This document shows positions 3,819-58,919 of a DNA stretch of 64,000 bases, one piece after another. Below the pieces are notes generated by a model. The model saw nothing but the letters and a program-made list of their open reading frames with translations, was not told where the DNA came from and ran no database searches. Within the stretch, counting starts at the first letter, position 1; each line of letters opens with the position of its first letter. Made by a program: the position numbers and the translations under genes. The stretch is from an uncultured Porphyromonas sp. (GTDB lineage: Bacteria > Bacteroidota > Bacteroidia > Bacteroidales > Porphyromonadaceae): assembly GCF_915070105.1 (NCBI RefSeq), contig NZ_CAJZFJ010000001.1:11399-75398 (forward strand), written 5' to 3'.

Positions 3819-6800
3819 TTACTCGGCATCTCTGCGGCGCTTGATCCTCAGGACGATGAGCAGGATGACGAAGAGGACGGCCACCCCTGCCACGACATAG
3901 AGCCCACTGAAGCTCTTGGTCACCGAGCCTGTGCTGTCGGAGACGGTCTCTCGCTTCATCACCACACCATCCTGAGTAGAGGCATTAGCGTCAGAGCCTT
4001 GGTCTAGGTGCTGCATAGAGCCCTTGTACTGCTTGGCTGTCTCAGGGGAGACATGCTGTGCGATGAAGTCACGGAGCTTGTGGTTCTCCGTCGTCATCCC
4101 ACCACCAGAGGGGCCGTACTTAGCTACTAGCTCGGTGTGGCGAGCCGCTAGAGTCGAGAGTTGCTCGGGCGAAGCTTGCCACATCCCCTTACGTGCCGTC
4201 TCGAGCATCACAGCAGTGAGCTCCTCAAGGGCTGCAGGGCTCTTCCCCTCGAAGGCCTGTGTGACACCTAGCCCGTGTACGTCACGGATGTACATATCGT
4301 AGAGGTTATCCCAGAGCTCCTTGTCGATGACCTCGGGCTTCATGACGTTCCATCCGTAGGTGTTGGTGACGACCTCGGTGATATTCGCTACGCTATTGGC
4401 TCCACCTGCGAGGGCCTCCTTGACGTACTCGGGGTTGAGGACGGTGGCACGGCTCTCCACACCGATAGCCTCCTTGAGGTCTTGCATGCGCATGTGGCTG
4501 TGGTTGCGGTAGTCCGCCAGATAGGTGTCGGGATCCTTGCCAGTGACGTTACGCACGGATAGGGTTAGCCCGCCCATGAACTCGTAGACGTGGTCTAGGC
4601 TGAGGGCGCCCCAGGTGTTGTTCTGTCGGGGTTGGATCACCACATCGGTGTTCTTGAGCGCTGCACGGAAGAGGGGCTTGACGAAGCGTCCCCAGTCCTC
4701 CTTCTTCCCCGTGTAGGCTGCTCCCATGTTGTTGAGGTACACATCGGCGATCTCCTTTTCCTGCTCCCACTTGTCTCCAGCGGTGACCATCTCTTGGATC
4801 CCCGTACCATACATGCCGTTGATACCACCGAAGATACGTACGTTGGCTAGAGCACGGGCCTCCTTGGGGGAGAGGCCTTGCTCTACGAGTTCCTTCTCTG
4901 TATTGATAGACCCTTGGGCGACATAGTTCTCTTCGCTCTCCTTGCCTTGGCTGGCAACGAGCTCCACAGCCTTAGTGATGAGGGCGAGGCGTGAGGCTGC
5001 GAGGTCTCTGAACTGTCCAGAGGTCTGGATCACCACGTCGATACGTGGCCGACCAAGCTCCGAGGTAGGGATCAGTCGAACATCCTCGACCGAGCCAAAC
5101 TGCGTACGTACGGGCTCTACACCCAGCATATAGAGTACCTGGGCGATCGTGACACCCTCGGTCTCGACAAACTCACTGCTCCAGAAGGTGTAGCTCACCT
5201 TCGTGGGATACTTGCCATGCTGCTCCTTGTAGGCCTTCAGCGTAGCTTGGGCAAGCTGGACACCTTGGCTCCAGGCACGCTGCGAAGGGGTGCTCTCTGC
5301 CCGAACAGAGTAGAGATTGCGACCTGTCGGTACGGCCTGTGGATTGGCCACGGCATCACCTCCAGGTGATGGAGCGGTGAAGCCTCCGTTGAGGGCATTG
5401 ATCGTAGCGTCTAGCTCCAGTCGTGGGCTTTCGGTGATCGCTCGATGATTGGTAAGGATAGCTAGGATAGCACGCTCTAGATCGGTGATAGCCTCAGCCT
5501 TATCTCGCTCCTGCTTGCTTGGCTCATTACTGATAGAGTCCTTGGACTGTCCGGTTGGCTTCCCTTGGGCATTGCTTTGGCTGATGGCCTTACCCATACC
5601 CATAGGATTCTTGGCAGAGGGATCCTTAGGAGCGCTACTGGGCTTCCCGTCTGTGGGCTTCCCCTGCTGGCTAGCCATCATGGCTGCCTTCATCCCACCT
5701 CGTCCCTTGGGGGGATTGATCTTGTGAGCCTGATCAAGCTCTGCCTGTGTGATTCCTCCGTAGGAGAGTACTAGGCTAGGGCTGAGGGACTGTGAGGAGA
5801 GTACTCGTAGGACGAGCTGCTGGGCGGGCTGTAAGTACTGCTGATAGAAGCGATGCTTATTGCTGGTGTTGTCTATCTGCTTGGCGGAGCGAAGGCGATC
5901 TAGGCGAGCCTTGGCATAGGCAATAGGGTCTGCGCTCATCGCTACGACGGTGGAGGTCACCTTGGCTGGAGCGTAGGGTGCTCCAGTGATGTAGAGTGTA
6001 CCATTGACCTTCTCAGAGGCGATCTCCTCGGCGAAGTTGTCGATACGCTCAACATCCTTGGCTGAGTAGGGCTGGGTGAGTATCGAGTCTAGGCGTAGCT
6101 CTCGGTGTATGCCTAGTCCTACGGCGAGCTTCTTGACCTCTAGGCTCTGTCGATCCTTAGCGGTAGCATCCTGCAGGTCGTAGTACTTCTCGATAGCCTG
6201 CTGGAGCGTGGTGAAGGTATGGCGAGTCTTGCTCTCATCGAAGGGTGGGGTGATGTAGGAGATGAGGCTTGCATAAGACCTACGCTTGGCCATCATACTC
6301 TCCCCAACATTACCTATGGTATAGTAGTAGAAGTGTGGGAGGGGAGCGACCAAGGCATCACCCCAGTCGTGGTTGCTTAGGGCTACCTGCTTCTGTGGTG
6401 TGAACTCTAGGCTACCATGTGTGCCGAAGTGCATGATGGCATCAGCCTGGAAGGCATGTCGTGCCCAGAGGTAGGCACACACGTAGGGGTAGGGTGGGGG
6501 CGAGGCGGCTCCGTGGACGATGGCGAAGTTGTCACTGCCGATACCAGCTACGGGTTGAGGAAGGAGGACGACATTGCCATACTGGATACGTGTCGTAGCC
6601 AGCTCTGGTGTCCCACCGACCATACGAGTCATATACTGACCGGGTACGTCTCCATAGGTCTCCTTGAGCTCCTTGATCTGCTTGGGGGTAAGGTCTTGCT
6701 GGATCCACTGCTCTAGCTCGGACTTCTTCACCCAAGCGGGATGTCCGTGCGCTAGATACTCCTCCATCTGTCCTCCTGCTACAGACTGGATCATGGGCCC

Positions 6801-9888: not shown

Positions 9889-10214
9889 GCGTCTAAGTCT
9901 ATTCTATATATGGAGGTGGACTCTACTTGTCTGTAATTTATTGTATGATACCCCAGTCTGCTGGGTAGTCCCTTAGGGAATACTTGATACTACAAAGCTA
10001 CGAAAAACTGCGCACATTTGCCTAAAACGTGCAGTGCGCTCATCGTCAGTCCTCCTCTCGCTCTCTGTGTGGCATGCATCCCGCAGCTACTTCCCCATAC
10101 TCTACATCACCTCTCCTTCCGCCCGTAGTCACAGCTCACCCTATCCCCCAGTGTGGGCTATTGATGGGGCGATGAACTCCCTTTATATCAGGCATTCTGA
10201 GAGGGATGAAGAGA

Positions 10215-10353
10215 ACATACCGAGAAGGGGAGTATAGTACATATAATGTTCGCCTCAATCACCTATGTAAGGTGACTGGTGCGAACATACCGAGAAGAGG
10301 ATGGCGAACATATAATGGTCGTCCCTGTCACCTATGTAAGGTGATTAGAGCGC
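10215..10353. repeat. Family-B palindromic repeat: two tandem degenerate units (ACATACCGAG + hairpin)
   Basis: Two units are visible. One is ACATACCGAGaagggg...ATAATGTTCGCCTCAATCACCTATGTAAGGTGACTGGTGCGAACATACCGAG, and a second degenerate copy follows. Related copies lie at 19638..19715, 45350..45424 and 58483..58559. Confidence 0.65.
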
Positions 10354-10559
10354 ACATACCGACTCCTCTCCTAAGGGGATAATATCCCGTAGGTAGTGCG
10401 CTTGGGGAGTACGTCATACTCCATAATATAATAGGGGGACTTTTTCGCCCTCTCGTTAGGACTCGTTGGGGAAGAATGGTGGGTAGGACGGAAGATCTTT
10501 CTCATAGAGAAAGGAGGTGAACTCGTGAGGCTTACCTCTGAGAGATATATGCTTTTTGC

Positions 10560-17562: not shown

Positions 17563-18891
17563 TTACTTGAGTGTAACCTCGACGATATAGTCGATGGCAT
17601 TGAGCTCGTGTGGAGCCTTGTCGAAGGTCAGGGTCAGCCCCGCCTTGGTCTGGGTGTAGGGGATGGGACGCTGAGTGTCGAAGGAGACAACACGCTGTAC
17701 TCGATCCGTCAGAGGTAGGGAGAGCATGCGGCTCTTCCAGTCGAGGATGTGTAGGTAGAGCGTCTTGCCTCGCTGGGTGGTCACACCCCATTCCAGAGGG
17801 GGCAGGATTCCCTCACGTACACCATCCTTGACGGTCTTGCCATAGACCTTCATCCAGGAGCCGATCTTGGCTAGGCGGTCTAGTGCGAGGGCAGGGAGGG
17901 CACCCGAGGGTTCAGGGCCGATGTTCAGTAGGAGGTTAGCATTGCGTCCTGCTGTCTGTACAAGTAGGCGGATGAGGGTGGTGTCGGACTTGTAGTTCTG
18001 GTCGATGATCTTGTAGCCCCACATACCATTCATCGTCTGACAAGTCTCTAGGGGGAGCTTACTGATGTCTTGACCTGATAGCCCTGCGGTGTTAGCTCCG
18101 GGGACGTCTCGCTCAAACATCTGGAAGTCCTCGCCTTGATGTGGTGCGCTATGGTGGTTGTTCCCGATCAGGCAGGCTGGGTTGATCTTATGGATATTGG
18201 CGTACATCTTGTCATATCGCCAGTCGAAGCCTGGGTTCTCATCCTGATCCCACTCTCCGTCCAGCCAGATAGCCTCTGCTCCGTAGTCTCGTACGAGCTC
18301 GGCAAGCTGTGCGTTCATGAAGGCATCGTAAGTGTCCCAGCTACCGTGGCTCTTGCGACCCGTACCTCGTCCTGTACGTCCGATGGGGTAGTAGTCCTCA
18401 CGATGCCAGTCAAGGATGGAGTAATAGATATGGAAGCCCAAGCCCTGCTTGCGGCACTCATCCCTCAGCTCTGCGAGGATGTCTCGGCGGAAGGGGGTAG
18501 CCTTGACGATGTTGTAGTCGCTCTGTTTCGTGTCCCACATAGAGAAGCTATCGTGGTGGCGCGAGGTGATGGTTAGGTAGCCTGCTCCCGAGGCCTTGAT
18601 GGCACTTACCCAAGCTGCGGCATCGAAGTGAGAGGGATAGAAGCCAGCGGCGGCCTTGGCATACTCGGCATGGTCGATATTGGCATTGGTCATATACCAC
18701 TCGCCTTGAGCGAAGGTGCTGTAGAGTCCCCAGTGGAGGAAGATCCCAAAGCCCTTGTCACGGAAGGCCTCACGTGCCTGGAGGTTCTCCTTCGTAGGCT
18801 TGTAGTCCTGCTGGGCTGAGGCATGCGGAGAGGAGGCAAGGAGCCCAAGAGCTATCCCTGCAGCATAGAGCGTAGTACGTACACTATTCAT
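17563..18891 (-). CDS. Alpha-L-fucosidase, GH29
   Basis: A signal peptide is present. GH29 hallmarks are present (GFGIFLHWGLYS, ITSRHHDSFSMWDT). The length is 442 aa. Confidence 0.85.
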   Translation of the reverse strand: MNSVRTTLYAAGIALGLLASSPHASAQQDYKPTKENLQAREAFRDKGFGIFLHWGLYSTFAQGEWYMTNANIDHAEYAKAAAGFYPSHFDAAAWVSAIKASGAGYLTITSRHHDSFSMWDTKQSDYNIVKATPFRRDILAELRDECRKQGLGFHIYYSILDWHREDYYPIGRTGRGTGRKSHGSWDTYDAFMNAQLAELVRDYGAEAIWLDGEWDQDENPGFDWRYDKMYANIHKINPACLIGNNHHSAPHQGEDFQMFERDVPGANTAGLSGQDISKLPLETCQTMNGMWGYKIIDQNYKSDTTLIRLLVQTAGRNANLLLNIGPEPSGALPALALDRLAKIGSWMKVYGKTVKDGVREGILPPLEWGVTTQRGKTLYLHILDWKSRMLSLPLTDRVQRVVSFDTQRPIPYTQTKAGLTLTFDKAPHELNAIDYIVEVTLK

Positions 18892-19066
18892 ATCAAATCA
18901 AGCAAAAGAAGTTAATTGTATGCTATATAGTTTGTATACCAAAGATAACGAATTCCTTAGATAACCAGCCCTCCAATTGAGCAAAATGACACATGTATGC
19001 TCTCCCCCTTCGCAAAGGGGACGACGCATGATCTCGCTCACACACTCCAGCCTTTAGATCTTTGGG

Positions 19067-19303
19067 GGTATCATTTCATATCCTAGGGAGCCCTAGCTCA
19101 TCCCTAGAGATCCTAGACATTATCTCTAAGAAACAGATATACAAGCGAGCCCTACAGAGGATATACTTAGAGCGTACTTGTGTACACGCGTGTATACAGT
19201 TGTGTACACGTGGGTATACAGTTGTGTACACACGTGTATACTCATCCCTCCTAGGTAGGAGGTATTCGCTTGGCATATCTACACCTAGCGGACACTTCTA
19301 TCT
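19067..19303 (-). repeat. Family-A repeat element copy 1 (contains 62-bp GTGTAYAC octamer array at 19180..19241)
   Basis: It aligns at about 85% identity with reverse-complemented or direct copies at 27683..27810, 44942..45173 and 57870..58087. Confidence 0.7.
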
Positions 19304-19637
19304 TTTCGGCCTATGCTCCTTGAGAACCTTGCCCTCGCACTATGGTGATTTCATGCGTCAGCCCTACCCATTTTATTGAGCCAAAAGACAAGAGAGTGTT
19401 GTCTCCCTCTGTGTGGGGGGATGTATAAAAGTGGCTAAACCCATCCTATCCTCCTACGGGGGATGGCTCTAGCCATCCTAAGAAGGAGGGAAGTGGAGGG
19501 AAAATGCTCCTTGATATAGGGAGTAAGTGGGGATCCCAGTGCAGGTAACAATGGATGAGTCCTAAGCCGTTCATACCTCCTATGTGTTGGGCTTTTCCAG
19601 AGGGTTGGAGAGGAGATACTGAGAGGGGTAAATCGGT

Positions 19638-19715
19638 CTCGGTATGTTCGCACTCGTCATCTTACATAGGTGATGGGTGCGAACATACCGAGTCCTCTAG
19701 TGCGAACATACCGAG
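19638..19715. repeat. Family-B palindrome copy
   Basis: The sequence is CTCGGTATGTTCGCactcgTCATCTTACATAGGTGATGGGTGCGAACATACCGAG, followed by a direct repeat of TGCGAACATACCGAGTCCTCT. Confidence 0.65.
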
Positions 19716-20026
19716 TCCTCTCCAGCCCTCTCGGAATGGTCGTTTTACCTGCATTATGGAGGGGTATTCGTGGGGATTGGAAAAGGCGGGTAGGGAGCTG
19801 TTTGTGGTAGGTTGGGCTAAGGGTTAGAGGGGGAATTTGATTTAAGGGCAGGCTTGCTGGAGCCCTCATTACAGAGGTGTGCTCTCATAATAGAACGGAG
19901 ACGCCCCTCGGTAGCTATCGCCTTGAGGCGAGAGTCTACCGAGGGGCTTCGGTGCTTCCTACCCTAGAGGTAGGTCAGCTCTGTGACGGGATAGCCTGCA
20001 GGTGGTATCCCTTGGGTCGGGCGAGG

Positions 20027-21634
20027 CTATTTGTCCTCTACGGTCATGATGCGAGCTAGATCAGTAAGGAGCTTCAGTAGGTTCTCCTTCGTGTTTAGCT
20101 TGAGCTCCATGTGTCCGTTCACTCCATCGTTGGTTGCTGAGAGGTAGGAGAGAGCCTTCAGGCGGTCTGATACCTTCTTGGGGACAAAGCTCATAACAAA
20201 GGATCCGACAGGGGTGCTTGTGAGGAGGTAGTTGAGGTCGAGTACCATCGAGGCGGAGTGTCCCTTGAGGATGGAGGAGTAGGTAGCTTCGCTGACATTA
20301 GGCTTCTGTTCCTTGAAGAGAGTAGCCTTGGCCTCATCTCCTAGAGCAAAGTAGGTGGAGCCGTCCTTATAGCCGAAGTATAGGGATGGATTTCCCTCCT
20401 TATGAGCGACATACTGGTGGTCCCCCTCGCTCTGTAGGGTGTATGGCTGGTCATAGCTCCATACTTCGATTGTTGAGTCAGTGGACTGCTTGCTCTTCTC
20501 CTCGATCGCTTGGGCGATTGCATCGACTCCTTGAGGGTTCTTACTCTCAGCATAGATGGTGACTGGAACGCCAGCGCTCCTAAGTGGGTTAAGCGAGGAG
20601 ATGGATAGAGCGAACTCACCATCGACTAGGCTGAAGAGCGATGAGGGCTCAATACCCATTTCTCCTAGGGCCTCAAAGACCCTGGTGAATGCAGGGTTAT
20701 CCTTGTAGACATTGACAATCTCAGGACCGCTGCAATAGCCATTCATGACGAAGAGGTTGTCCTTAGTGAGGAACTTACCATACTTGTTCTCACTCTTCTT
20801 TGGAGAGATGGTCTGGCTGAGCTTTGTGAACTTCTCTAGGGTTGCCTTGTCTTCGGATATGTACTTGATATCGGTGGTAGTCACTCCGCTCTCGAAGTTG
20901 ATATGTAGCGCTATCTGCATCTTGCTCATATCTATCCCTTGGGCAGCGAGCTGGTCGGGGTTGAGTTGGCCATATGCATAGTATGAGTAGAGTGAGAAGA
21001 GCTTCTTGTAGTCAAGGATAAGGGATAGGTCTGACTTCTTGGACTTGAGTTCCTTGAAGGATGAGGTTTCGTGGTAACGCTTGCCCTCCTTGAGCTTGAG
21101 TAGCTGGATAGCTTCCACACGCATATCCTTCTTGGTCTGGGTGGTGGGGATGAGGATGAGGAGTGCATCCTTGGTGAAGGCGACGGCGTTATCTCCCGTA
21201 TCGTTTAGGATCGAGATACCATCCTTCAGCTCCATGGTGGCCTGAGGATTCTTGATTTGGTTCAGGTCGGTGAGGAACTTCTTGAGCTTTCCCTCGTCAG
21301 ATACGCGAGCCAGGAATGCACCCTGGAGGTCAGGTGTAGTGAAGAGATAGACAGGGCTCTTGAAGTCGATACCTGCCTTCGAGGGATCTTCGAGGAGAGG
21401 TCTTAGGACCTTGGCCTCTGGGGCATTGGAGTTGGGGAAGAGCTGATCACGGAGTGCCTTGTTCTCCTTGGATAGAATTTCCGACTTCTTGACGAGCTGG
21501 TCTACAGATACTGAGAGGACGAAGTCCGCTTCAGCGGGGATGACTTGCTCGTAGACCTGACTCTTGCTACAGCTGGCAAGGGTGAGGGCAGCTAGAGCAA
21601 GTATACCTAGATAGTAACGAAGCTTGGTGCACAT
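20027..21634 (-). CDS. Lys-rich lipoprotein of unknown function (535 aa)
   Basis: The lipobox is LTLASC. No catalytic motifs were recognised. GC by eye is about 48-50%, below the window average. Confidence 0.6.
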   Translation of the reverse strand: MCTKLRYYLGILALAALTLASCSKSQVYEQVIPAEADFVLSVSVDQLVKKSEILSKENKALRDQLFPNSNAPEAKVLRPLLEDPSKAGIDFKSPVYLFTTPDLQGAFLARVSDEGKLKKFLTDLNQIKNPQATMELKDGISILNDTGDNAVAFTKDALLILIPTTQTKKDMRVEAIQLLKLKEGKRYHETSSFKELKSKKSDLSLILDYKKLFSLYSYYAYGQLNPDQLAAQGIDMSKMQIALHINFESGVTTTDIKYISEDKATLEKFTKLSQTISPKKSENKYGKFLTKDNLFVMNGYCSGPEIVNVYKDNPAFTRVFEALGEMGIEPSSLFSLVDGEFALSISSLNPLRSAGVPVTIYAESKNPQGVDAIAQAIEEKSKQSTDSTIEVWSYDQPYTLQSEGDHQYVAHKEGNPSLYFGYKDGSTYFALGDEAKATLFKEQKPNVSEATYSSILKGHSASMVLDLNYLLTSTPVGSFVMSFVPKKVSDRLKALSYLSATNDGVNGHMELKLNTKENLLKLLTDLARIMTVEDK

Positions 21635-27682: not shown

Positions 27683-27810
27683 GCCTCAGTCCCTATAACG
27701 AGGAGACAAATGTGTACACGCGTGTACACATTTGTATACAGGCGTGTACACTACTGTATACACACGTGTACACAAGTGCGCTCTCGGTATGTCCTAGGGG
27801 AGGCTTATCT
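27683..27810 (+). repeat. Family-A repeat element copy 2 (array 27712..27773)
   Basis: The array is GTGTACACgcGTGTACACatttGTATACAGgcGTGTACACtactGTATACACacGTGTACAC, with conserved flanks. Confidence 0.7.
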
Positions 27811-28074: not shown

Positions 28075-28755
28075 ATGAAGATCTTCCTCAGCATCTGCAC
28101 TCTTGCCCTCGGACTCAGTCTGACCTCTTGCGATCTGTCTATGCTCACTAATCGAAGTGAGACGAACCGCATTGAGCGTGGTATGACCAAGCGTGAGGTA
28201 ACCAATATTCTTGGCACACCCTCCTATCGTCGTCTCGCCACAGACGGCTCTGAGGACTGGGAGTATCGCCGTACCAACATCCTAGGGGAGACCTCGGTCG
28301 TGGTCGTCACCTTCTATGACAACCGTGTCGTACGTATGGACTCCTACAACGGAGACGACTGGGAGCGTCGCCGCTCACAGAGGGACTACCCAAGCTACCC
28401 ATCTAACCCTACTTACCCCTCTAACCCTCGCTACCCAAGCTATCCACAGGATCCTCGCTATGAGGACGAGCGTGATAGAGAATCCTTTGAGGACTTCCTA
28501 AGGGCGATCGCAGATAAGCACTTCACTAAGGATAAGATACGCTTCATCCGTGATGCTGCTCGTCGCAACGTCTTCACTGTGGCGCAGACTGCCCGCATTC
28601 TGCGCCTCTTCACCTGGGATAGCGAGAAGCTCGAGGTGCTGGAAGCCCTTGCTCCACGTCTGAGGGATGGCTACAATGCGTATAAGCTCGTAGACCTATT
28701 CACCTTCTCTAGCAATCAGGAGAAGGCTAGGCGCATCCTCGGCCTGACACGTTAA
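28075..28755 (+). CDS. Lipoprotein paralog 1: BamE/SmpA-OmlA-like N-domain + Pro/Tyr-rich linker + one DUF4476-like helical domain
   Basis: The lipobox is LSLTSC. The BamE-like N-domain shows IERGMTKREVTNILGTPSYRR...DGSEDWEY. The helical domain shows FEDFLRAIADKHFTKDKIRFIRDAARRNVFTVAQTARILRLFTWDSEKLEVLEALAPRLRDGYNAYKLVDLF. Confidence 0.7.
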   Translation: MKIFLSICTLALGLSLTSCDLSMLTNRSETNRIERGMTKREVTNILGTPSYRRLATDGSEDWEYRRTNILGETSVVVVTFYDNRVVRMDSYNGDDWERRRSQRDYPSYPSNPTYPSNPRYPSYPQDPRYEDERDRESFEDFLRAIADKHFTKDKIRFIRDAARRNVFTVAQTARILRLFTWDSEKLEVLEALAPRLRDGYNAYKLVDLFTFSSNQEKARRILGLTR

Positions 28756-28780
28756 AGAAACCCCCAACATAATACTACCA

Positions 28781-29770
28781 ATGAAGAAATATGCATGGGC
28801 TCTCGTATGCCTAGTCCTCGCCCTCACGACCTCCTGTGGGGGTGTGGGGAAGGCTCGGAGCAAAGTCAATCAGATCGAACGAGGAATGACCAAGGGGCAG
28901 ATCACAGCTCTGCTGGGTGCACCTAAGAACAAGAGTGTCCAGGATGATGGCACCGAGACCTGGGAGTACGTCTACACAGACATCCTATCTAGGCAGTTAG
29001 ATGTGACGGTGACCTTCGCTCAGGATCGTGTCTCCAAGTATGACAGCCGTCAGAGTGTAGTGGAGCAAGATCGTCATGTGAGCTCGGGTCCCGTAGTACC
29101 CATTCCTAGCCCCGTCCCAACCCCAGTACCAGGAGGCTATCCAGACCCGAGGGTGCTGGAGGAGGAGGCTCGAGCCTTCGAGGACTTCTACGGTGAGGTA
29201 CGTCGTATCCCCTTCGAAGAGGAGCGTATAGGCTTCATCCAGAGTGTGGCTCGGCGCAGCCTCTTCACGGTCGATCAGGCTGGACGGCTTATTACCCTCT
29301 TCCACTGGGACGAACAGCGTCTCGCTCTACTAGAGGCACTTGCTCCACGACTGAGGAATGGCTACAATGCCTTCCGTCTGCTGGAGCTCTTCTCCTATGG
29401 ACCAGCCCAGGATCGGGCTCGCCAGATCCTAGAGCGTGTGCCTCCCGTACCGAGGGAGTATGATCCCCGCTATGGCGGTCAGGTCGAGCCAAGGGAGAGC
29501 TTCGAGGAATTCCTAAGCGTAGTAGAGCGACAGACCTGGGACAAGGACAAGATCCGCTATATCCAAGATGCCGCACGATACAACTCGTTCACTGTCGCTC
29601 AGGTAGCTCGCTTACTCAAGCTCTTTACCTGGGATAAGGAGAAGCTACAGGTACTAGAGGCGGTCGCCCTACGTATACGGGATGGCTATAATGCCTATCG
29701 CCTCATAGACCTCTTCGACTTCGACAACGCCCAGCAGCAGGCTCGCCGTATCCTAGGTCTCACAGAATAA
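28781..29770 (+). CDS. Lipoprotein paralog 2: same architecture with the helical domain duplicated
   Basis: The lipobox is LTTSC. The BamE-like N-domain shows IERGMTKGQITALLGAP...DGTETWEY. Two copies of the F(E/D)DF...LFxWD...LEAxAxR(L/I)R(N/D)GYNA domain are present. Confidence 0.7.
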   Translation: MKKYAWALVCLVLALTTSCGGVGKARSKVNQIERGMTKGQITALLGAPKNKSVQDDGTETWEYVYTDILSRQLDVTVTFAQDRVSKYDSRQSVVEQDRHVSSGPVVPIPSPVPTPVPGGYPDPRVLEEEARAFEDFYGEVRRIPFEEERIGFIQSVARRSLFTVDQAGRLITLFHWDEQRLALLEALAPRLRNGYNAFRLLELFSYGPAQDRARQILERVPPVPREYDPRYGGQVEPRESFEEFLSVVERQTWDKDKIRYIQDAARYNSFTVAQVARLLKLFTWDKEKLQVLEAVALRIRDGYNAYRLIDLFDFDNAQQQARRILGLTE

Positions 29771-29789
29771 GCCCAACAAGATAGACCCT

Positions 29790-30500
29790 ATGAAGAGACA
29801 TGCAATGAAGGTCCTAGCTCTCGTGGTGGGGGTGCTTGCTCTCTCCTCTTCGTGCGCTACGATAGCTCGCCAGCGTACGGCGGTGCATAAGATGGCTCAG
29901 GGGATGACTCGGCAGCAGGTCTTAACACTGCTTGGATCACCAAGAGGGAAAGAGGTGGCAGCGGGAGGAAAGGAGATTTGGTCCTATTACTTCCTTGATA
30001 CCTATCGCAACTCACTGACGATCGAGGCAGCCTTCCTTCAGGATAGCCTGGTTCGTTACAGCTTCGTCGAGGGGAAGGGGGCTGACTACTTCTCTAATCA
30101 GCGTATGCCACGTACCCTCACTGTCCAGCCCGGACAGACTCCTACACCTCGGCCTGTACCACCCGCATCACGGCAGCAGAGGAGGCTTAACGAAGAGGAG
30201 CAGGACTTCAATGACTTCCTTCGTCAGCTACGAGAGGAGGCTTTCCCCGAGGAGCAGCTAGCCCTCCTACGACAGACATCGCTACGCTGCACCTACTCCG
30301 TGAAGCAAGCGATACAGATTCTTGGGGTCTTCGACTTCGAGGAGGAGCAGCTAGATGCCCTGCGGATTATAGCACCACGGCTAAGGAGGGGCTACAACAT
30401 CGGTCGCCTACTTGAGTTCTTTGACGAAGGTATGGAACGAGACGAAGCTCGGAAGATCTTAGAGCGGAGGTCTACTTCCTCCCCCTCTTCAGAGTGGTAG
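29790..30500 (+). CDS. Lipoprotein paralog 3 (more divergent)
   Basis: The lipobox is LSSSC. The N-domain shows MAQGMTRQQVLTLLGSPRGKE...GGKEIWSY. One helical domain copy is present (FNDFLRQLREEAFPEEQ...ILGVFDFEEEQLDALRIIAPRLRRGYN). Confidence 0.65.
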   Translation: MKRHAMKVLALVVGVLALSSSCATIARQRTAVHKMAQGMTRQQVLTLLGSPRGKEVAAGGKEIWSYYFLDTYRNSLTIEAAFLQDSLVRYSFVEGKGADYFSNQRMPRTLTVQPGQTPTPRPVPPASRQQRRLNEEEQDFNDFLRQLREEAFPEEQLALLRQTSLRCTYSVKQAIQILGVFDFEEEQLDALRIIAPRLRRGYNIGRLLEFFDEGMERDEARKILERRSTSSPSSEW

Positions 30501-44797: not shown

Positions 44798-44941
44798 TAA
44801 GTACAGTCCTAGAGTTTCTAATCTCTATAAGACAAAGGTAACAAAAGATTAGCTCTCCCGCATTTCCCTCCCCCCGAAGAGGGTAGTTCCGATGCTTGTT
44901 CTCATTGGGGATGCTCTGCCCTTTGGCTCTATGGGTGGCTA

Positions 44942-45173
44942 GTCCATGTCCGAGGAAGCCATAGGTCCATATATGGAATGTCTAGGCGTTATCCCCGAGG
45001 AATGAACATACGGGAGAGCTCTACAGAGGACATACTTAGAGCGATGTTGTGTACACGTGTGTATACAGTTGTGTACACGCAGGTACACTATTGTGTACAC
45101 ACGTGTATACTTACCCCTCCTAGGTAGTAGGTATATGCTTGGTGTGTATACTCCTAGGATACAGATATTTCTG
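44942..45173 (-). repeat. Family-A repeat element copy 3 (array 45048..45109)
   Basis: The array is GTGTACACgtGTGTATACagttGTGTACACgcAGGTACACtattGTGTACACacGTGTATAC, with conserved flanks. Confidence 0.7.
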
Positions 45174-45349
45174 TCTTGAGTATATGCTGCTTGACCACAT
45201 TGCACTCCCCCCTCTCCAGACTTCATGAGTCAGCTCTATCCCGAGGAGCCGAACATCCACCTGCTTTAGGTGGCTAGAGAGCGTAAGGCGTGAATTATTC
45301 CACTCTAATTCGCCCTATATCGAACACTCCGAGAGAGGGAGGCTAGAGG

Positions 45350-45424
45350 ACATACCGAGAGGGGGATATGGATATATAACGTTCGCCCCCATCGCCTCTG
45401 TAAGGTGACGGGGGCGAACATACT
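45350..45424. repeat. Family-B palindrome copy
   Basis: The sequence is ACATACCGAG...AACGTTCGCCCCCATCGCCTCTGTAAGGTGACGGGGGCGAACATACT. Confidence 0.65.
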
Positions 45425-45597
45425 GTGTCCTCAGATGAGGTGAGTATAGGCTCTATGAGGGGCACTTGAGATGAGCTCTACATCGCTAGTGTGATCGGGG
45501 CTTTGGGGGAGGATAATACCTTCGTAGCTATGCCCCGCTTGCCATCCCTCCTCTTGTTTATAGTATATGGGAGGATAGGTCAGGAGTAACCTAGAGG

Positions 45598-57645: not shown

Positions 57646-57869
57646 GAGTCCTAAATAAGCTGTGTAGCGGAGCCACTATCACCATCTCTCCTGACCCAAC
57701 AGGGGCGGGGATGTGTGACGCACCACAGAATGGTTGCTGTAAAGTTAGTGAATAACTACGTATCTCGTTACCCGTTTGGCTCCTTGGGGTAGCTAGCTGG
57801 TCTAGGATCAAGGCCAACACATGAGATCACCATAGTGTGAGGGCAGAGTAGTCAAGGAGCATACACGCA

Positions 57870-58087
57870 AGATAGAAGCATCTGTGCCCCAGGTATAGAT
57901 ATACCCAGGGTATACCTACGACCTAGGAGGGGTAAGTATACACGTGTGTACACTATAGTGTACCTGCGTGTATACAAGAGTGTACACACGTGTACACAAC
58001 CACGCTCTAAGTATCATCCCAGTAGGCTCTCATATTTAGCTCTCCTCGGGACTAACGTCTAGGCACCCTAGACTCCCTTGGACATGG
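57870..58087 (+). repeat. Family-A repeat element copy 4 (array 57936..57997)
   Basis: The array is GTATACACgtGTGTACACtataGTGTACCTgcGTGTATACaagaGTGTACACacGTGTACAC. Confidence 0.7.
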
Positions 58088-58482
58088 AATAATACCTCAA
58101 AGAGAAAAGAACAGAGAGTCCCAAACAGATTATGTATAGCCTCTGCGGATAGGAGCCATAGCCAGATAAGTGACTATGAGGGCTTGCTTCCCTCCTCCCG
58201 GGCAAGTGCCAAGAAGGCTCCCAAGTGCCCCACGGAGAGTGCGCCCCTCCCTCAGCTAGAAGGGTAGACAATGGTACTACCCTTAGGAGGGAGTAGGGCA
58301 TTTCTCCTAGCTAGGCAGAGAGGAGAAGGGAGGGCAATGAGCTCGTATCCATAAGGGAAAAGGTTGTAGCCACTCCTATCTAGGCATGGGGCGAAAGAGG
58401 AAGGTTAGTAGATGAGACGCGAGCTCAATAGAACTTCACTAACATTCTCTTTATCAAGTATTCTGAGAAGGGTCTAGGAGAT

Positions 58483-58559
58483 ATACCGAGAAGGCAGGAG
58501 GGGACATATAATGTTCGCCCCCATCACCTTACATAGGTGACGGGGGCGAACATTATATC
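58483..58559. repeat. Family-B palindrome copy (the most perfect one)
   Basis: ATATAATGTTCGCCCCCATCACCTtacataGGTGACGGGGGCGAACATTATAT has a 23-bp perfect stem. Confidence 0.7.
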
Positions 58560-58919
58560 TTCCCTCTAGGGAACATTACGTGTCCTCAAGTAGTGCTCAT
58601 CGGAACGCTTTATTCGTGATGATAATAGGAGCGTACACCCTAATCGGTGTGCAAGGGAAAAGAGGAGCGACTGTCCCTGCGAAGTCCTTCGCTTGGTCAG
58701 CCGCTCCTCTCTATTAGAGTGTCAATGTGATTAGTCTCGAGCCATAAGCTCCCATGAAAGAGTATCGAGAGTGCTCCTAGAGCTCCCCTCCGTCCTCAAA
58801 GTCGTCGAAGCTCCCTTCAGCAGAGAAAGAAACAAGGAGAGACTGTTGTAGGTCCATGATGTGGATAATCTCCGCTCTAGGGCGGTCATAAGGTAGGTGT
58901 ATCATAGTATAATCATGTG

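Follow-up and report, generated by a model that had tools for sequence, protein, structure and literature searches.

The nearest described analogues of the repeats analyzed in this work are BrickBuilt and MITEPgRS/MITE464, MITEs (miniature inverted-repeat transposable elements) found in Porphyromonas gingivalis (Klein et al. 2015, PMC4596501). These elements are intergenic and non-autonomous, measure a few hundred base pairs, are bounded by terminal inverted repeats (TIRs), and occur in tens of copies per genome within a narrow range of hosts; internally, repeats of ~22–23 nt (or 41 nt) are placed between non-repetitive 'leader' and 'tail' arms, and long stem-loops are predicted (PMC4596501). 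The same general organization was found in a repeat present in four copies within a 64-kb stretch of DNA (64,000 nucleotides of contig NZ_CAJZFJ010000001.1, further referred to as the window) of an uncultured member of the same genus. The analyses described below revealed that these repeats belong to a 353-bp MITE family, not described before, of an uncultured Porphyromonas lineage, and that each of the four window copies contains a central 62-bp array of six palindromic octamers.

A previous sequence-only reading of the window had pointed to the P. gingivalis elements as an analogy and had refrained from claiming identity, and this caution was justified. The BrickBuilt and MITEPgRS TIRs are of the IS5 type (GAGACCTTTGCA / GAGACTGTTGCA) (PMC4596501), and they were not found in the 353-bp consensus of the family described here, with up to 2 mismatches allowed (a PgRS-like 12-mer at window position 58839 was judged a chance match). 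Moreover, the target site duplications (TSDs) of the P. gingivalis MITEs are irregular and 2–5 bp long (PMC4596501), whereas those of the present family are regular and measure 10 bp, and the number of BrickBuilt repeats varies from 1 to 22.8 and differs between loci and strains (PMC4596501), in contrast to three units in 32 of the 34 copies considered here. The unit itself is also different, as its 22 bp comprise two 8-bp palindromes, unlike the 23-nt (or 41-nt) BrickBuilt minisatellite. Membership in the BrickBuilt/MITEPgRS group was thus rejected on the basis of TIRs, TSDs, and repeat number, by comparison with the published description and TIR sequences (PMC4596501).

Two other kinds of small bacterial repeats may be treated as functional analogies only. 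The REP/BIME sequences of enterobacteria and pseudomonads are short imperfect palindromes that form closely spaced intergenic arrays and are bound by IHF and gyrase. They are mobilized by RAYT (Y1) transposases and have neither TIRs nor TSDs; their arrays, variable in both number and orientation, are not placed within a larger bounded element. Here, in contrast, the array is exclusive to the 353-bp unit bounded by TIRs and TSDs, and no RAYT was seen. The Correia (NEMIS) elements of Neisseria are small TIR-bounded intergenic MITEs with a central functional IHF site and with effects on neighbouring genes. Their TIRs measure 26 bp, the duplication is TA, and there is only one IHF site; they do not contain a palindromic octamer array and show no sequence similarity to the element described here.

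The 353-bp MITE family and its distribution

The family was searched for with a strict 25-nt pattern, taken from the right edge of the array, in one genome per species (185,579 species representatives). This resulted in 31 loci, all within a single metagenome-assembled genome (MAG), 'uncultured Porphyromonas sp. SRR9217423-mag-bin.10', while the other species representatives gave no match to the pattern. The window and the MAG are about 92% identical over their single 8-kb overlap, and two metagenome contigs are 94–95% identical to the window; therefore, the window originates from a close relative of the MAG. No similarity to the consensus was found among the PLSDB plasmids. In the IMG/VR viral contigs, a three-octamer pattern gave 0 matches, and the 19 matches to a TIR 16-mer were recognized as chance ones, with no MITE behind them.

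For the construction of the consensus, 31 copies (27 from the MAG and four from the window) were aligned together with their 400-bp flanks, and conservation was found to change sharply at both edges of a 353-bp unit. This unit has no coding capacity for a transposase, and its size is within the generic limit for MITEs (under ~600 bp). It is terminated by 16-bp TIRs, CAGGGCTGACGCATGA on the left and TCATGCGTCGGCCCTG on the right; when the left TIR is set against the right end read as its reverse complement (CAGGGCCGACGCATGA), 15/16 and 18/22 bases match. Perfect 10-bp TSDs flank six copies (L014, L015, L018, L019, L027, and L034), and their sequences are unrelated to each other (cccctatact, ggggaagccc, cccctaagat, tgatagcccc, agtgtacaca, and accgatctat). 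Near-perfect TSDs (9/10) were found for three others (L010, L020, and L032).

These TIRs and TSDs, together with the at least 31 dispersed copies and the presence/absence polymorphism among strains described below, confirm the MITE-like, non-autonomous mobility that had been raised as a possibility from the window alone. The copy number in relatives, the termini, and the TSDs, all of which had been left to a wider search, are now given by the 31 MAG loci, the 353-bp ends, and the 10-bp duplications. The extent of the repeats had been estimated at ~130–240 bp, but copies 1, 3, and 4 turned out to be longer, and copy 2 survives only as a core. A profile search of the window with nhmmer revealed no copies beyond the four (Table 1). 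The termini of copy 1 are slightly mutated (TAGGGCTGACGCATGA ... TCATGCGTCGTCCCC). The remnant of copy 2, which retains the CGAGGAG box, the array, and CGCTCTCGGTAT, was matched by nhmmer at about 27695–27806 (+), through model positions 110–225 only. Copy 4 is reversed with respect to its two neighbour genes, both located on the minus strand.

One TSD deserves a separate comment. The copy at locus L027 (5928–6267) is flanked by AGTGTACACA, which includes the octamer of the element itself; this may be due to chance or may hint at some target preference. A nested insertion at this locus was considered and rejected, as the flanks are ordinary DNA with no second array or MITE.

The copies differ considerably in age. 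The young subfamily groups 17 copies, including copy 1 of the window, which are 85–94% identical to the consensus (all but two at 90% or more), and was generated by a recent burst. The older copies, among them the decayed copies 2, 3, and 4 of the window, are 52–74% identical to the consensus. Copy 1 is missing from seven related strains (L149–L155) having a 98%-identical fucosidase, and the intergenic region that separates the DUF4836 and fucosidase genes (window 18891–20027) measures 1135 bp, as compared with about 340 bp in these strains, where it contains neither MITE copy 1 nor the copy of a second, hairpin repeat family (see below). The L018 copy is filled in every strain sampled. In more distant relatives, synteny is lost at both the copy-1 and the L018 sites. 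No clean empty site was found at either locus. Metagenome contigs often end inside the element (short-read examples are L004, L006, and L161–L165), and the family thus fragments the assemblies of this lineage.

Element ends and ISAs1-family insertion sequences

CAGGG ends and a 10-bp TSD are traits of the ISAs1 family of insertion sequences (ISs), for which ISfinder gives TSDs of 8–10 bp. The ends of the MITE follow the CAGGG...CCCTG pattern. Ends of the same type (CAGGGAAAGAT... / ...ATCTTGCCCTG) delimit the element of the Escherichia coli protein YhhI (H-rpt), which scores as NCBIfam NF033564, ISAs1 family transposase. The use of YhhI as a tblastn query on Porphyromonas-like DNA indicated a decayed ISAs1-family IS beside dapB (locus L043, 5157–6118), with inverted repeats (IRs) CAGGGTTCCCGCATCAAAATC and TGGGGCTCCCGCATCAAAATC. 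The stitched translation of this IS retrieved, in turn, intact transposases of 362–366 aa with PF13808 and PF01609.

ISAs1-family ISs of 1139–1177 bp were found in Porphyromonas-like metagenome contigs, with IRs of the form CAGGGC(TCC/AAC/ACC/GAC)CGCATCAAAA. Eight IS copies, representing six distinct ISs, all have CAGGG...CCCTG ends, and several of the IS contigs share their sample series with contigs of the species of the window. The ISs are located at L138 (693–1867) and L145 (2464–3602), as well as at L139–L144, L146–L148, L166, and L167. In the compact ISAs1 subgroup, the IRs are about 21 bp long, and the right IR contains the stop codon of the transposase gene.

The MITE TIR matches these IRs at 12–13 of 16 positions. 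All mismatches but one fall at positions 7–9, which are variable among the ISs, and the remaining one concerns position 15, which is G in the MITE and C in every IS examined. The IR consensus of this Bacteroidales subgroup is CAGGGCnnnCGCATCAAAA and that of the MITE is CAGGGCTGACGCATGAAAT, both starting with CAGGG. The TSDs are also alike, measuring 9 bp in the IS of L145 (CGGAAATAA) and 10 bp in the MITE. The ISs carry a transposase gene, which the MITE lacks. No similarity between the MITE and these ISs was detected past about 20 bp at each end, and no octamer array is present in the related full-length ISs.

Judging from the ends, the parent family appears to be ISAs1, and not the IS5 type of BrickBuilt. 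An ISAs1-family DDE transposase recognizing its ends would move the MITE in trans, and we infer from the sequence of the IRs that the mobilizing enzyme belongs to this ISAs1 subgroup. The lack of a transposase or integrase near the repeats, indicated previously, was confirmed for the whole 64-kb window, and a tblastn search with an ISAs1 transposase gave no match either in the window or at the loci bearing MITE copies. To our knowledge, ISAs1-derived MITEs have rarely been described.

The octamer array and its possible role

Direct reading of all four window sites confirmed that each copy carries a 62-bp array of six octamers, as had been claimed. GTGTAYAC gives 34 strand-hits in the window, as compared with 2.9 expected, and all of them lie within the four copies. 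The octamers, of the general form GTRTAYAC, start at offsets 0, 10, 22, 32, 44, and 54 of the 62-bp block, which bears out the reported spacers of 2, 4, 2, 4, and 2 bp and the alternation of 10 and 12 bp between octamer centres. This alternation occurs because a tandem 22-bp unit (repeated 2.9–3.2 times according to Tandem Repeats Finder) holds two octamers. The array coordinates proposed earlier were accurate for copies 1, 2, and 4, and those of copy 3 were off by one base (45049–45110, not 45048–45109). The statement that all six sites face the same side of the helix holds as an approximation only: the mean spacing of the octamer centres is 11 bp, and with 10.5 bp per turn all six of them are spread over about 85 degrees. 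The conserved flanks, CCTAGGAGGG..A.GT to the left of the array and AAnnnCGCTCTAAGTATnTCC.C.GTAG to its right, are both present.

Loss of the octamer phasing in further copies, which the sequence-only reading had named as a ground for abandoning its interpretation, was not the case, as the exact six-octamer 62-bp layout is kept in 32 of 34 copies. The exceptions are L034, which lacks one 22-bp unit, and L027, which lacks 11 bp. An 18-bp partial-unit expansion, resulting in seven octamers, was found in L039 (about 6100–6220), the orthologue of the copy-2 array, and slippage does therefore occur at orthologous copies. As length changes are few (L034, L027, and L039), the array is a fixed three-unit repeat and not a hypervariable minisatellite.

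The distribution of substitutions was analyzed in 13 old copies. Sites differing from the consensus amount to 44–51% in the arms, 36–61% in the TIRs, 46% in the 4-nt spacers, 23% in the 2-nt spacers (all transitions), and 8.4% in octamers 1–4, which lie outside the search pattern; for octamers versus 4-nt spacers, Fisher p = 2e-17. Octamer positions 1, 4, and 5 are invariant in these copies, and the only changes seen at positions 3 and 6 are G/A and C/T switches. Positions 2, 7, and 8 deviate only in the central variant octamer, i.e., in O3 (usually GTATACCC) or, where the unit is inverted, in O4. Such reverse-complement sub-units affect the O3–O4 pair in L024, L036, and L037 and the O4–O5 pair in L025, L029, and window copy 4 (57968–57987), which suggests local inversion within a quasi-palindrome. 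Since the sub-units occur in either orientation, the octamer constraint is indifferent to strand. Outside the MITEs, the octamer is found at chance frequency (13 observed versus 14.4 expected in 305 kb) and is never clustered.

The array might also act as RNA, i.e., be co-transcribed and form a long hairpin altering mRNA stability, processing, or termination, in the manner of REP, BOX, ERIC, or Correia elements and of the predicted BrickBuilt stem-loops. The consensus does fold strongly (z-score −7.3), with the array as a nested hairpin and the TIRs paired together, but such a fold is trivial for a palindromic array enclosed by TIRs. Neither RNAalifold (covariation term −0.12 kcal/mol) nor a targeted search for array-enclosing stems revealed covariation, and compensatory changes are absent from all stems outside the palindromes. 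A conserved A-C mismatch is present in every octamer pair on the top strand, and both sub-unit orientations occur, which switches the strand able to form G-U pairs. Moreover, there is no U-tract, no Rfam family matches at the gathering threshold, and the orientation of the element relative to genes is unbiased. RNA structure was thus rejected as the source of the constraint, and we consider an RNA role of the array highly improbable.

The tolerance of inversion, combined with the absence of RNA covariation, suggests that the constraint acts on double-stranded DNA, and our best guess is that the array would function through sequence-specific recognition of GT.TA.AC. Viewed as a triplicated 22-bp unit with two GTRTAYAC palindromes each, it may represent a cargo specific to the MITE, because it was not found in the related full-length ISs. 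Two ways of acting can be envisaged. The array could serve as a platform offering several sites to a dimeric protein that binds or bends DNA, with six dyads at a mean of 11 bp occupied cooperatively; its sequence constraint is compatible with protein binding, and cooperative binding of dimers is plausible. Alternatively, it could be a flexible hinge near the centre, protein-assisted or intrinsic, helping the two ends of the 353-bp element to synapse; a hinge role would explain why the array is kept across subfamilies and yet absent from the 1.2-kb ISs. It is conceivable, though we propose it tentatively, that the array is a genuine cis-acting DNA module, either needed by the MITE or co-opted by the host as a regulator or nucleoid platform or as a hinge.

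A sub-hypothesis concerning the array, which follows the previous sequence-only reading and is compatible with the MITE identity of the element, assumes a dispersed operator platform bound cooperatively by a host dimeric helix-turn-helix regulator or nucleoid-associated protein, with the MITE spreading the module to genes. It is consistent with the position-specific constraint on the octamers and the free 4-nt spacers, with the mean 11-bp recurrence of the octamer centres, with the tolerated inversion of sub-units, which points to recognition of double-stranded DNA, and with the position of most copies in intergenic regions containing at least one gene start. The conservation of copy 3 also fits. 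A 209-bp identical run (45023–45231), the longest in the 8-kb alignment of the window and the MAG, extends over the array, the greater part of the left arm, and the 26 bp next to the array on its right side, in lineages about 92% identical overall, whereas the adjacent upstream spacer is 82% and the flanking genes are 94–96% identical.

A lead only is provided by the GntR regulators. The octamers, which fit GT.TA.AC, conform to the general GntR scaffold NyGTNxACNy and have the 4 nt between GT and AC that are typical of the HutC subfamily, whose operator palindrome is NyGTMTAKACNy (PMC4494728), but their positions 3 and 6 are G/A and C/T (R/Y) instead of the M/K of HutC GTMTAKAC. Further points speak against an operator: the copies have no linked regulator gene, 305 kb of sequence contained no 'native' operator outside the MITEs, the copy-2 orthologues show no extra conservation, and the gene-relative orientation bias is not significant. 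The copies also lie upstream of conserved promoter-proximal DNA and do not overlap it; in the case of copy 1, this DNA is conserved in both the filled and the empty alleles. Weighing both sides, we regard the operator platform as possible but doubtful.

The explanation that best joins all these data, and that we hold to be probable, combines a 353-bp MITE, mobilization of the ISAs1 type, a recent burst, and a constrained array as a MITE-specific cargo acting on double-stranded DNA. Several observations weigh against it. The search pattern includes octamers 5–6 and CGCTCT, and decayed copies devoid of the array are invisible to it. Copy 1 of the window lacks a clean TSD, and what distinguishes its filled allele from the empty one is a set of complex indels, not a clean excision footprint. 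Among the eight ISAs1 transposase clusters examined, none has ends identical to those of the MITE. The right end of the element is directed toward a gene start in 25 of 33 cases (p = 0.002), but this apparent orientation bias vanishes without the divergent intergenic regions (11 versus 6 in co-directional contexts, p = 0.17), and it was dropped because copies in divergent regions carry no orientation information. In the orthologues of copy 2, substitutions and the 18-bp expansion affect the array at about the rate of the flanks, and host-level conservation is thus inconsistent, being strong at copy 3 and absent at copy 2. Finally, template switching within the quasi-palindrome, or octamers derived from the master copies of several subfamilies, could mimic constraint.

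Some of these points lead to the alternative of a functionless array, namely a tandem repeat inherited from master copies, whose apparent conservation would result from ascertainment, the youth of the family, and self-correction of the quasi-palindrome. Apart from the ordinary substitution and slippage in the copy-2 orthologues, this would agree with the placement of the search pattern within the array, with the identity of the 17 young copies to the consensus (85–94% throughout), and with the loss of array parts in L034 and L027. In addition, the variable 4-nt spacers are the loops of the O2–O3 and O4–O5 hairpins and are thus beyond correction by template switching. However, octamers 1–4, although outside the search pattern, are five times better conserved in old copies than the spacers and the adjacent arms. 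The third octamer is inherited stably in its imperfect form, which template switching should tend to perfect, and the invariance of positions 1, 4, and 5 goes beyond purine-pyrimidine alternation, which transitions would keep. The 209-bp run of copy 3, containing the array, is moreover the most conserved part of the 8 kb. A functionless array consequently seems unlikely to us.

Genomic context and significance

The window is ordinary Bacteroidota chromosomal DNA with a G+C content of 54%, encoding housekeeping functions and proteins with the Bacteroidales-typical DUF4836, DUF4476, DUF4301, and DUF4980. Neither tRNA genes nor Rfam families were found within it. All four MITE copies of the window are intergenic.

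Table 1. Coordinates of the MITE copies and their octamer arrays in the window
Feature	Position	Strand	Characteristics
MITE copy 1	19016..19366	-	full length, 351 bp; young subfamily; 91% identical to the 353-bp consensus
MITE copy 2	27683..27810 (approx.)	+	decayed core of ~125 bp; arms and TIRs unrecognisable
MITE copy 3	44884..45238	-	old subfamily; 74% identical to the consensus; degenerate TIRs; orthologous to the copy at MAG locus L011
MITE copy 4	57809..58145	+	old subfamily; 72% identical to the consensus; 337 bp
Array of copy 1	19180..19241	.	six GTRTAYAC octamers in 62 bp; 22-bp unit x 2.9
Array of copy 2	27712..27773	.	six octamers
Array of copy 3	45049..45110	.	inside the 209-bp identical run 45023–45231
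Array of copy 4	57936..57997	.	six octamers

The element adds a defined MITE family, for which a consensus, TIRs, and TSDs are available and ISAs1 parentage is probable, to a genus whose MITEs have been associated with promoter activity and with plasticity of the genome. It accounts for contig breaks and long intergenic regions in the assemblies of this uncultured and probably oral Porphyromonas lineage, and polymorphic insertions, such as the filled or empty copy-1 site, may be used as strain-typing markers. The array, in turn, is a concrete target (62 bp, six GTRTAYAC sites) in the search for a DNA-binding protein or a bending function. If the platform is real, dozens of intergenic regions share a high-occupancy site and constitute a MITE-built regulon; if the array is functionless, we are dealing with an ordinary MITE specific to one lineage. 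Only the fine-scale octamer conservation sets the element apart from a routine one of this kind.

Two open reading frames (ORFs) associated with the MITE were also considered. A small ORF, starting with an ATG after an AGGAGG-like box in young copies, was rejected, as the ATG is not kept in old copies. A 105-aa TTG-initiated ORF (window 19062–19379, +) crosses copy 1 on the opposite strand and is the only ORF across this copy; it is almost certainly spurious, though of the type annotated as a hypothetical protein.

Directly downstream of MITE copy 2, there are three tandem paralogous BamE-like/DUF4476 genes (window 28075–30500). The window also contains a second family of dispersed repeats (10181–10372, 19580–19737, 45361–45430, and 58447–58566), the core of which is a hairpin, ATGTTCGCCCCCATCACCT-(loop)-AGGTGACGGGGGCGAACAT, with conserved flanks GAACATACCGAGA... 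Members of this hairpin family share the intergenic regions of MITE copies 1, 3, and 4, and a tandem pair of them is located at 10.2 kb.

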